A stretch of DNA of 32,000 nt, from positions 5,123-37,122 of the forward strand of contig NZ_BAABJE010000018.1 of NCBI RefSeq assembly GCF_039543145.1, read 5' to 3'. The translations under genes were made by a program, and so were the position numbers. This DNA comes from Lysobacter hankyongensis. Its GTDB lineage: Bacteria; Pseudomonadota; Gammaproteobacteria; Xanthomonadales; Xanthomonadaceae. Below, piece after piece: positions 12,040 to 12,438 of this stretch (position 1 is the stretch's first letter; every line of letters begins with the position of its first letter). The notes under the pieces are model-generated. The model was not told the DNA's origin, did no database searches, and worked only from the letters and a program-made list of their open reading frames with translations.

Positions 12040-12438
12040 TCACCCCGGAGATTCGATCCCCTCGGGATCGATGGCGTCCAGGTCGGCATCGACGACGATG
12101 TCGATCGCGCCCGTCGGGATGTCGAACACGACGGTGAACAGGTCGAGGAATTCGCCGGTGTCGCGGGTGATCACGACGTGGCGCATGCCGGTGTTCTCGT
12201 CGATCTCGATCAGGCGCCGGCCGCCGGGCGAATCCTCCCAGGACTGATTCGGTTTCAGCGGCACCTTGCGCTCCGCGCGATAACGCACTTCGACCGTGTC
12301 GTGCGCAGGCACGCGCACGCTCTGGGCGACGCTGCGGGCGAACCACGCCGGCCGGGATGCGGCCGGGTGGCGCGCTTCGAGCGCCGCTTCCGCGGCGGCC
12401 ACCGCCGCGTCGATGGCCCGTATCTGTTGTCGCGTCAT
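12040..12438 (-). CDS. Hypothetical acidic 132-aa protein; candidate immunity or accessory protein for the BC-fusion cargo
   Basis: - The ATG at 12436-12438 overlaps the TGA of the upstream BC gene (12435-12437) as ATGA, which indicates translational coupling. The stop TGA is at 12040-12042.
- Codons read by hand show strong G/C third-position bias, as in the flanking real genes.
- The composition (D, E, I, V, F, K, N present) is unlike the Arg/Ala/Pro/Gly-dominated off-frame ORFs.
- Net charge is about -7 (about 22 D+E against 15 R+K).
- No family was recognised from memory. In the track it appears only as the C-terminal tail of the artefactual 12040..19449 ORF. Confidence 0.6.
   Translation of the reverse strand: MTRQQIRAIDAAVAAAEAALEARHPAASRPAWFARSVAQSVRVPAHDTVEVRYRAERKVPLKPNQSWEDSPGGRRLIEIDENTGMRHVVITRDTGEFLDLFTVVFDIPTGAIDIVVDADLDAIDPEGIESPG

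Follow-up and report, generated by a model that had tools for sequence, protein, structure and literature searches.

Why should an operon for a toxin complex (Tc) carry what looks like an immunity gene? Tc toxins have attracted study for their insecticidal action, for their part in the virulence of human pathogens and for their use as programmable protein injectors, and the working assumption of the field is that the cocoon, together with a eukaryote-specific cargo, makes immunity unnecessary. The question is raised by a 32,000-nucleotide stretch of Lysobacter hankyongensis (contig NZ_BAABJE010000018.1, positions 5,123 to 37,122; hereafter the window, in whose coordinates positions are given), where a small open reading frame (ORF) of 132 aa plus a TGA stop (12040–12438, minus strand) stands between a TcB-TcC fusion gene (BC) and a TcA gene, in the minus-strand order BC, ORF, TcA (11954 to 2097). 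Based on context, co-variation and selection, the ORF most probably encodes an inhibitor, the cognate immunity protein for the toxin domain with which BC ends. Sequence comparison shows the ORF and the C-terminal ~150 aa of BC to be a single mobile toxin-immunity cassette that was drawn from the polymorphic toxins of bacteria and joined by recombination to the end of the Rhs core in the TcB-TcC fusion, upstream of TcA.

The C-terminal cargo of BC is a predicted mobile toxin module (12438–12893, minus strand), comprising a pre-toxin motif (LLPxSSLNxRQ…) and a putative catalytic domain of ~118 aa, for which no curated model exists. The conserved mobile unit begins at LLPxSSLNxRQ, ~150 aa from the C-terminus, and the regions ahead of it vary by context; for the C-terminal ~144 aa of BC there are 28 relatives, many of them short proteins. 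A toxin-domain profile scanned against one genome per species (185,579 species) returned 10 loci (from Sphingomonas, Chitinibacteraceae, Duganella, Planctomycetota, Blastopirellula, Phycisphaerales, Myxococcales, two deltaproteobacterial/Kofleriaceae metagenome-assembled genomes and Desulfobacteraceae), and all 10, as well as the other toxin-domain loci, have a homolog detected by the ORF profile directly downstream of the toxin domain. The homolog is present in 14/14 distinct toxin-domain loci, with −14 to +28 nt between the toxin stop and the partner start. The toxin domain spans at least five phyla and is carried by Rhs proteins (L015 and L017, with RHS, LysM and DUF637 or with DUF6531 and RHS domains), a CdiA-like protein with Fil_haemagg_2 (L016), a 739-aa protein (L020), stand-alone or orphan genes (L010 and L013) and the BC proteins of Tc loci (the window and L001). 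Among the short orphan toxin genes, one adjoins Imm26 and type IV secretion system genes and another is near PT-HINT, ankyrin and transposase genes.

The earlier note on this DNA had suggested that an immunity gene should co-vary with its cargo, and the ORF family does follow the cargo domain into Rhs, CdiA-like and stand-alone contexts, while it is absent from 80 sibling loci (see below). The identity matrices of toxin and partner for the 14 loci are correlated (Mantel r = 0.79, with 0/5000 permutations as high), which supports, but does not prove, a physical coupling, as shared ancestry contributes to the correlation. The partner diverges faster, with 24–35% identity where the toxin retains 44–61%. 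Copies in other arrangements include tandem partners in L020, a fused duplicate (P0047), toxin-less partners in L110 and L113 (orphan) and, on a plasmid-like contig of Undibacterium luofuense with ParAB/Rep3 (L109, 8757–9405), an intact partner preceded by a toxin remnant of 28 C-terminal aa, an arrangement suggestive of a displaced cassette or of an orphaned immunity gene. Collectively, the pair displays the hallmarks of polymorphic toxin-immunity systems, with a variable toxin after a demarcating motif, the same toxin on different scaffolds, a downstream gene whose variation follows the toxin rather than the delivery region, and orphan, tandem and remnant copies, together with the opposite charges of toxin and partner and the compact, confident fold that are typical of immunity proteins.

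Two of these loci have further particularities. In L110 (5673–14441), the partner genes (9001–9351 and 10179–10529) are downstream of an 858-aa protein with a HEVTH metallopeptidase-like motif and adjoin an eCIS_core gene, a possible link to contractile injection systems. In L016, from Duganella phyllosphaerae, the toxin domain of the CdiA-like carrier contains an in-frame stop (8088–8090, directly after …VSMADLR), beyond which the frame continues; this is a pseudogene or a sequencing error, and the downstream partner is intact.

The Tc loci that lack this toxin provide the complementary comparison. When the C-terminal 372 aa of the BC core were used to scan metagenomes, 80 BC-type loci with 39–50% core identity were recovered, mostly BC fusions, with TcA directly downstream in ~45 and upstream in four. 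None of the 80 has the toxin domain or the small ORF, and the hypervariable regions (HVRs) of 71 of the sibling BC proteins are mutually unrelated (mean column identity, 8%), such that the ORF belongs to the cargo and lies outside the Tc machinery. With a homolog in 14/14 toxin loci versus 0/80 siblings, the toxin-immunity layout that the earlier note had read from the overlapping genes gains support from its genomic context, whereas the assembly factor that it had offered as an option is, in the sense of a general Tc factor, argued against by the same 80 siblings, including the ~45 with TcA directly downstream, and this role was ruled out for the ORF.

Of the ~45 sibling loci with BC followed by TcA, ~20 have no gap between the two genes and ~12 have other, mutually unrelated ORFs in it (L039, 8107–8499; L087, 8037–8576; L099, 8274–8528; L082, 8092–8736; L097, 2054–2587; L064, 8153–8680; L068, 8302–9300; and L078, 8389–9438), several of which overlap BC by 4 nt, L087 and L099 included. 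The gap ORF of L039 encodes a DUF7919 protein behind an HVR with a Stv domain, and L054 combines a deaminase-like motif in its HVR with the absence of a gap ORF. Conceivably, the space between BC and TcA is a general ‘immunity slot’.

In a window with 69% GC, chance long open frames occur on both strands, and an open frame alone is no evidence for a gene, given that the small-ORF frame is open over 2469 codons in a mechanical ORF list and that long ORFs run antisense to the genes. Two of the latter (1995–11978, 3327 aa, and 12357–20078, 2573 aa, both on the plus strand), opposite TcA and BC, are shadow ORFs, as their GC peak at codon position 1 (0.90 and 0.88) mirrors the GC at third codon positions (GC3) of the real genes. 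That the small ORF is real is indicated instead by its frame-specific GC3, its homologs at the same position, its substitution pattern and its predicted fold. The GC by codon position is 0.72/0.48/0.86 for the ORF, 0.71/0.54/0.88 for BC and 0.73/0.50/0.90 for TcA, and the GC3 phase in a sliding profile changes frame exactly at 12438, in agreement with the genuine-looking, GC3-rich codon usage reported previously for the 132-aa frame. The four-nucleotide junction was likewise confirmed, at the same coordinates on the minus strand: the ATG of the ORF (12438–12436) and the TGA of BC (12437–12435) share ATGA, and a Shine-Dalgarno-like GGGAG (12445–12449, minus strand) is situated 6 nt upstream of the ATG, within the 3’ end of BC.

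Seven relatives of the ORF product, with 57–91% identity, were identified among 5.8 billion proteins, and on all of the contigs examined the gene sits between the BC fusion and TcA with the identical 4-nt overlap; the exact ORF sequence occurs on eight metagenome contigs with an identical layout. Four diverged Tc lineages keep the gene in this slot (59–91% amino acid identity), all of them with the ATGA overlap and with either GGGAG or GGAGG, and across them the dN/dS is 0.21–0.43 for the ORF (dS to ~0.8–1.4) and 0.07–0.15 for the toxin domain. The small ORF is thus under purifying selection, and its presence beside homologous HVRs with an intact frame in relatives, on which the earlier proposal depended, was found in all four lineages.

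The ORF product is acidic (net charge, −7; pI 4.9) and the HVR is basic (net charge, +18; pI 11.5), bearing out the opposition of charges that had been noted between the two. The ORF family has 59 members in the 5.8-billion-protein set, and a profile search of 1.84 billion cluster representatives found 128; on the latter count the family is small; two large repetitive adhesin-like proteins (P0170 and P0197) were rejected as relatives because their profile matches were spurious and of low complexity. An AlphaFold2 model based on 54 family members is confident and compact (pLDDT 91.4), in which a long helix at the N-terminus and a short one accompany an antiparallel sheet that carries an insert of three strands. 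The partner occurs in a long form (~131 aa) in proteobacterial loci and in a short form (92–100 aa) without the three-strand insert in planctomycetes and myxobacteria. As had been stated from the sequence, no known family was recognized: the 54 members matched Pfam at chance level only (Cren7, E about 0.005–0.018; Imm33, 0.015 in one member), there was no match in NCBIfam, and a Foldseek search of the PDB with the model returned nothing at E ≤ 0.001. BLAST found no copy of the ORF in plasmid and phage collections.

The toxin domain had no match in Pfam, NCBIfam or a PDB sequence profile search, though it has a JAMM-like catalytic signature (12588–12755, minus strand) composed, in the numbering of the 144-aa query, of E39 (12753–12755), H80 (12630–12632), H82 (12624–12626) and D94 (12588–12590). 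Both histidines are invariant among 27 sequences, and E39 and D94 nearly so, in the context TGDEY … WSGHTHPPGY … DR, while the JAMM serine is not conserved. The AlphaFold2 model (pLDDT 95.5) places the glutamate just before a strand, the HxH at a strand end and the aspartate at the start of the next helix, which is the arrangement of JAMM/MPN+ metalloenzymes. The conserved E/HTH/D motif, its placement in the model, the spacing in a Deinococcus homolog and weak fold matches together suggest that the domain is a JAMM-like metal-dependent hydrolase, related to but outside the curated Tox-JAB families. None of the 27 members matched the DUF4329 or Toxin-JAB1 hidden Markov models (HMMs) at E ≤ 10, and a Foldseek search of the PDB gave nothing significant, the best weak matches being deaminase-type folds (E = 0.13).

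In BFVD, the best match of the toxin model is A0A8S5MRD2 (E = 5e-11; TM-score, 0.73; 30% identity), a 490-aa MuF-type ‘minor capsid protein’ of Siphoviridae sp. ctqED62, matched by fold only, from which the toxin domain may also occur on MuF-type phage proteins; no sequence relatives of the toxin were found by BLAST in a phage collection or in a scan of IMG/VR. Weaker BFVD matches are p25 of Xanthomonas phage Xop411 (E = 2e-3; TM-score, 0.39–0.45) and iridovirus and mimivirus proteins. Xop411 p25 itself matches DUF4329 (Tox-JAB-2) at 8e-5, below the Pfam cut-off, and a profile-profile comparison (hhalign) of p25 with the toxin family aligned only the His-Thr-His strand (E = 0.23, not significant). 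BLAST returned one distant plasmid match for the toxin, on plasmid P3 of Deinococcus gobiensis (NC_017771; L107, 4031–4644). This homolog has 108 aa and the canonical JAMM spacing H-S-H-x7-S-x2-D, matches Toxin-JAB1 only at E = 0.25 and overlaps by 4 nt with a downstream ORF of 96 aa that weakly resembles PepSY (E = 0.027). The two look like a mini-pair of the toxin-antitoxin type, and a profile-profile comparison of the 96-aa partner with the ORF family was not significant.

The cargo is attached to an otherwise recognizable Tc complex. BC (12435–20102, minus strand) has 2555 aa from its first ATG and is also called in L024 and L025; gene callers place the start on identical contigs 15 codons further downstream (2540 aa). 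Pfam matches in BC are SpvB (5e-79), TcdB_toxin_midN (3e-28), TcdB_toxin_midC (2e-20), FG-GAP_3 and RHS_repeat, and the defining parts of a Tc (ABC) complex are found, with SpvB, a β-propeller and an Rhs cocoon in BC and a TcB-binding domain in TcA. The Rhs/TcC core ends with the motif DPTGL (13617–13631, minus strand), where the translation reads …NRPIGSSDPTGL and continues with WETPSW…; by analogy with TcC and Rhs proteins, this is the expected autoproteolytic boundary between cocoon and cargo. The HVR after DPTGL (13616–12438, 393 aa) starts with a leader (13392–13616, minus strand) consisting of a strongly hydrophobic, transmembrane (TM)-like segment (WETPSWRTVAIVAAVVVVG…; Kyte-Doolittle 19-aa windows >1.6 at HVR residues 3–51) and then a Gly/Ala-rich stretch that extends to ~12894. 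The same leader precedes unrelated C-terminal domains in seven other BC fusions (L028, L030, L032, L035, L054, L082 and L097), and its hydrophobic, TM-like character is atypical for Tc cargo.

Downstream of the small ORF, an 85-nt spacer (11955–12039, minus strand) holds a ribosome-binding site (AGGAG, 6 nt before the ATG) for TcA (2097–11954, minus strand; 3285 aa), which matches TcA_TcB_BD (1e-106), ABC_toxin_N (2e-40, residues 1723–1855) and Neuraminidase (2e-26) in Pfam. No promoter-like or terminator-like sites were seen at 11700–12700, including the BC/ORF/TcA junctions. The ~1700 aa ahead of ABC_toxin_N (residues 1–1722; 6790–11954, minus strand) lack Pfam matches except for a weak CarboxypepD_reg and may be an unusual receptor-binding region; in L001 the N-terminal part of TcA is called separately, as a 408-aa gene and a 2861-aa gene. 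The flanks of the operon contain housekeeping and transport genes (1–1959, 20279–21304 and 21311–23299 on the minus strand; 27105–28004 and 28370–31267 on the plus strand), with HtpG, a GFO/IDH/MocA oxidoreductase, a major facilitator superfamily transporter, a UbiA prenyltransferase and a TonB-dependent receptor among the products. No lysis or type 10 secretion system cassette, regulator or mobile-element gene was recognized beside the operon in the window, and the upstream neighbors in L001 are unlike those of the window and include a helix-turn-helix regulator.

The nearest parallels to the pair are the polymorphic toxin-immunity cassettes of Rhs and CdiA proteins, treated in Zhang et al. 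2012 and reportedly in Ruhe, Low & Hayes 2020. As in the window, these have a variable C-terminal toxin after a core-end motif (DPxGL) and a small, faster-evolving, co-varying gene directly downstream, with toxin domains common to several scaffolds, orphan or tandem immunity copies and toxin remnants. In contrast, the toxin in the window is carried by a TcB-TcC fusion whose operon also encodes a complete TcA injector, with the predicted immunity gene between them, and both families of the pair are without a curated model. Relative to the classical Tc toxins (Photorhabdus TcdA1-TcdB2-TccC3 and Yersinia entomophaga YenTc), the window shares the ABC_toxin_N, neuraminidase-like and TcB-binding domains of TcA and the SpvB, β-propeller and Rhs cocoon of BC, and the basic HVR (pI 11.5) fits the rules for cargo. 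It is unlike them in the order of BC before TcA, the fusion of B and C, the TM-like, Gly/Ala-rich HVR leader and the immunity-type gene, and its cargo is a polymorphic-toxin domain of Rhs/CdiA-like proteins rather than a eukaryote-specific ADP-ribosyltransferase.

The premise that Tc loci are thought to be free of immunity genes agrees with Song et al. 2021 (PMC7861908), who found no predicted immunity proteins in any Tc locus examined, in a genome-wide survey from which BC fusions were excluded. The window departs from this generalization, as an immunity-type gene lies between BC and TcA, and no literature report of an immunity gene in an A+BC locus was found. The first 300,000 characters of Zhang et al. 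2012 (PMC3482391) describe SpvB-RHS proteins as a trafficking mode of polymorphic toxins (the ‘TcdB/TcaC export pathway’) with immunity families and list Tox-JAB-2 paired with Imm-NTF2 among the toxin-immunity families; the virus groups given there for Tox-JAB-2 are those of the Xop411 p25, iridovirus and mimivirus fold matches, and the name TcdA (the A-component injector) is never used in that portion of the text. The toxins of that pathway, as described there, share with the window the combination of SpvB, propeller and RHS with swappable C-terminal toxins, but by HMM the toxin-immunity pair in the window is not among the Zhang families. The conserved E, H-T-H and D of the toxin, in the order β-strand–HxH–loop–D-helix, are shared with Tox-JAB-2/DUF4329 and Tox-JAB-1, in contrast to the lack of a significant HMM, profile-profile or PDB fold match and the non-conserved serine. 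Bacterial teneurin-like proteins (PMC13018210, 2026) resemble BC in having an RHS/YD shell around a C-terminal toxin and an immunity gene directly downstream, which is needed there, and differ in lacking a TcA injector and in their N-terminal architecture.

In the proposed mechanism, BC, the ORF and TcA would be transcribed as a single operon, and ribosomes ending BC would re-initiate at the ATGA overlap, so that the immunity protein would be made beside, and in proportion to, each new toxin domain. The acidic ORF protein would bind the basic JAMM-like metal-hydrolase domain and inhibit it, neutralizing any toxin that is not safely unfolded within the cocoon (nascent, mis-encapsulated or truncated chains and broken cocoons), while encapsulated cargo would be cut at DPTGL and pass through TcA unaccompanied by the immunity protein. 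The target of the cargo is presumably also present in bacteria, and the gene would be needed here, unlike in the classical Tc toxins, because the cargo derives from interbacterial weapons. For the bacterial teneurin-like proteins, the RHS/YD shell alone did not protect Escherichia coli from the encapsulated toxins (PMC13018210), and by analogy the cocoon alone may not shield the producer.

A further step, that the environmental Tc clade with BC before TcA serves as a weapon against bacteria or a broad range of microbes rather than as a toxin against eukaryotes, seems unlikely, though the gap ORFs, the HVR leader common to different toxins and a cargo drawn from interbacterial weapons leave room for it. 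If so, TcA would breach the envelope of the target, the TM-like, Gly/Ala-rich HVR leader would carry the toxin across the inner membrane and the immunity gene would protect sibling cells from incoming toxin, as in contact-dependent growth inhibition and type VI secretion systems.

Several observations weigh against an immunity function. The activity of the toxin is read from a JAMM-like motif that lacks a significant Pfam or PDB match, with a weak fold link to DUF4329, and the ORF matches no known immunity family (Pfam Imm*, SUKH or NTF2-type), no PepSY inhibitor and no solved fold. The three members of the partner family that were followed from the reverse direction all lack an intact toxin, making the association between toxin and partner one-way, and all of the examples in a Tc context belong to one orthologous group, such that the association within Tc loci counts as one event. 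Lastly, co-variation with the toxin domain would equally be expected of a toxin-specific chaperone or activator.

Such a helper, a cargo-specific chaperone, loading or activating factor that keeps the toxin unfolded or soluble for the cocoon, or renders it active, without inhibiting it, would also gain from translational coupling, and toxin-specific helpers are known for other polymorphic toxins (reportedly, for example, TrxA for TreX; PMC11606950). This explanation is nevertheless improbable. The same ORF family occurs behind Rhs, CdiA-like and stand-alone toxin genes, whose very different export routes argue against a cocoon-loading factor; the orphan and tandem copies that lack an intact toxin (L109, L110, L113 and L020) suit protection from an incoming toxin and not assistance to a cell’s own; and the position directly downstream, together with the acidic/basic pairing, is the pattern of immunity genes.

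Alternatively, since toxin-immunity cassettes move as units, the ORF could have hitch-hiked with the toxin and have no role in a Tc context where the cocoon already protects the producer, in line with the ~20 sibling loci that have no gene between BC and TcA and with the classical Tc toxins, which function without immunity genes (PMC7861908). A useless gene would be expected to decay, yet the four Tc lineages, at dS of ~0.8–1.4, keep the ORF intact in length, ATGA overlap and Shine-Dalgarno element with dN/dS of 0.21–0.43, and a passenger without function is on this account quite improbable. Very improbable is an addiction module, in which the toxin domain and the ORF would stabilize the locus or a mobile element in the manner of a toxin-antitoxin pair instead of forming part of a delivered weapon; the D. 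gobiensis plasmid pair (108-aa toxin, 96-aa partner and 4-nt overlap) and the ParAB/Rep3 contig of L109 would fit it, whereas the toxin in the window is carried as cargo at the C-terminus of a 2555-aa cocoon protein, beyond DPTGL and beside TcA, which is a delivery architecture, and elsewhere it is borne by secreted weapons of the Rhs and CdiA-like kinds. That the frame is open by chance in GC-rich DNA, as the 2469 open codons and the long spurious ORFs on both strands of the window might suggest, has next to no probability given the GC3 switch at 12438, the 59 and 128 family members, the purifying selection and the confident AlphaFold2 fold, and is refuted by the conservation of the ORF.

Read as a toxin and its cognate immunity protein, the pair follows a logic that is already known, the standard polymorphic toxin-immunity scheme in an unusual host. 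What is new is a Tc operon with a predicted cognate immunity gene, the order of BC before TcA with that gene in the gap and two uncurated protein families, the JAMM-like toxin and its predicted inhibitor, which are defined here. For the engineering of Tc injectors, the arrangement indicates that translational coupling is a way to supply an inhibitor along with a harmful cargo. For the biology of the Tc family, the locus is a concrete counter-example to the assumption that immunity is unnecessary, in which a complete A+BC operon appears to have taken up an interbacterial cassette and kept the predicted immunity gene under selection, implying either that the cocoon would incompletely protect the producer from a bacterially active cargo or that some Tc machines may target bacteria.

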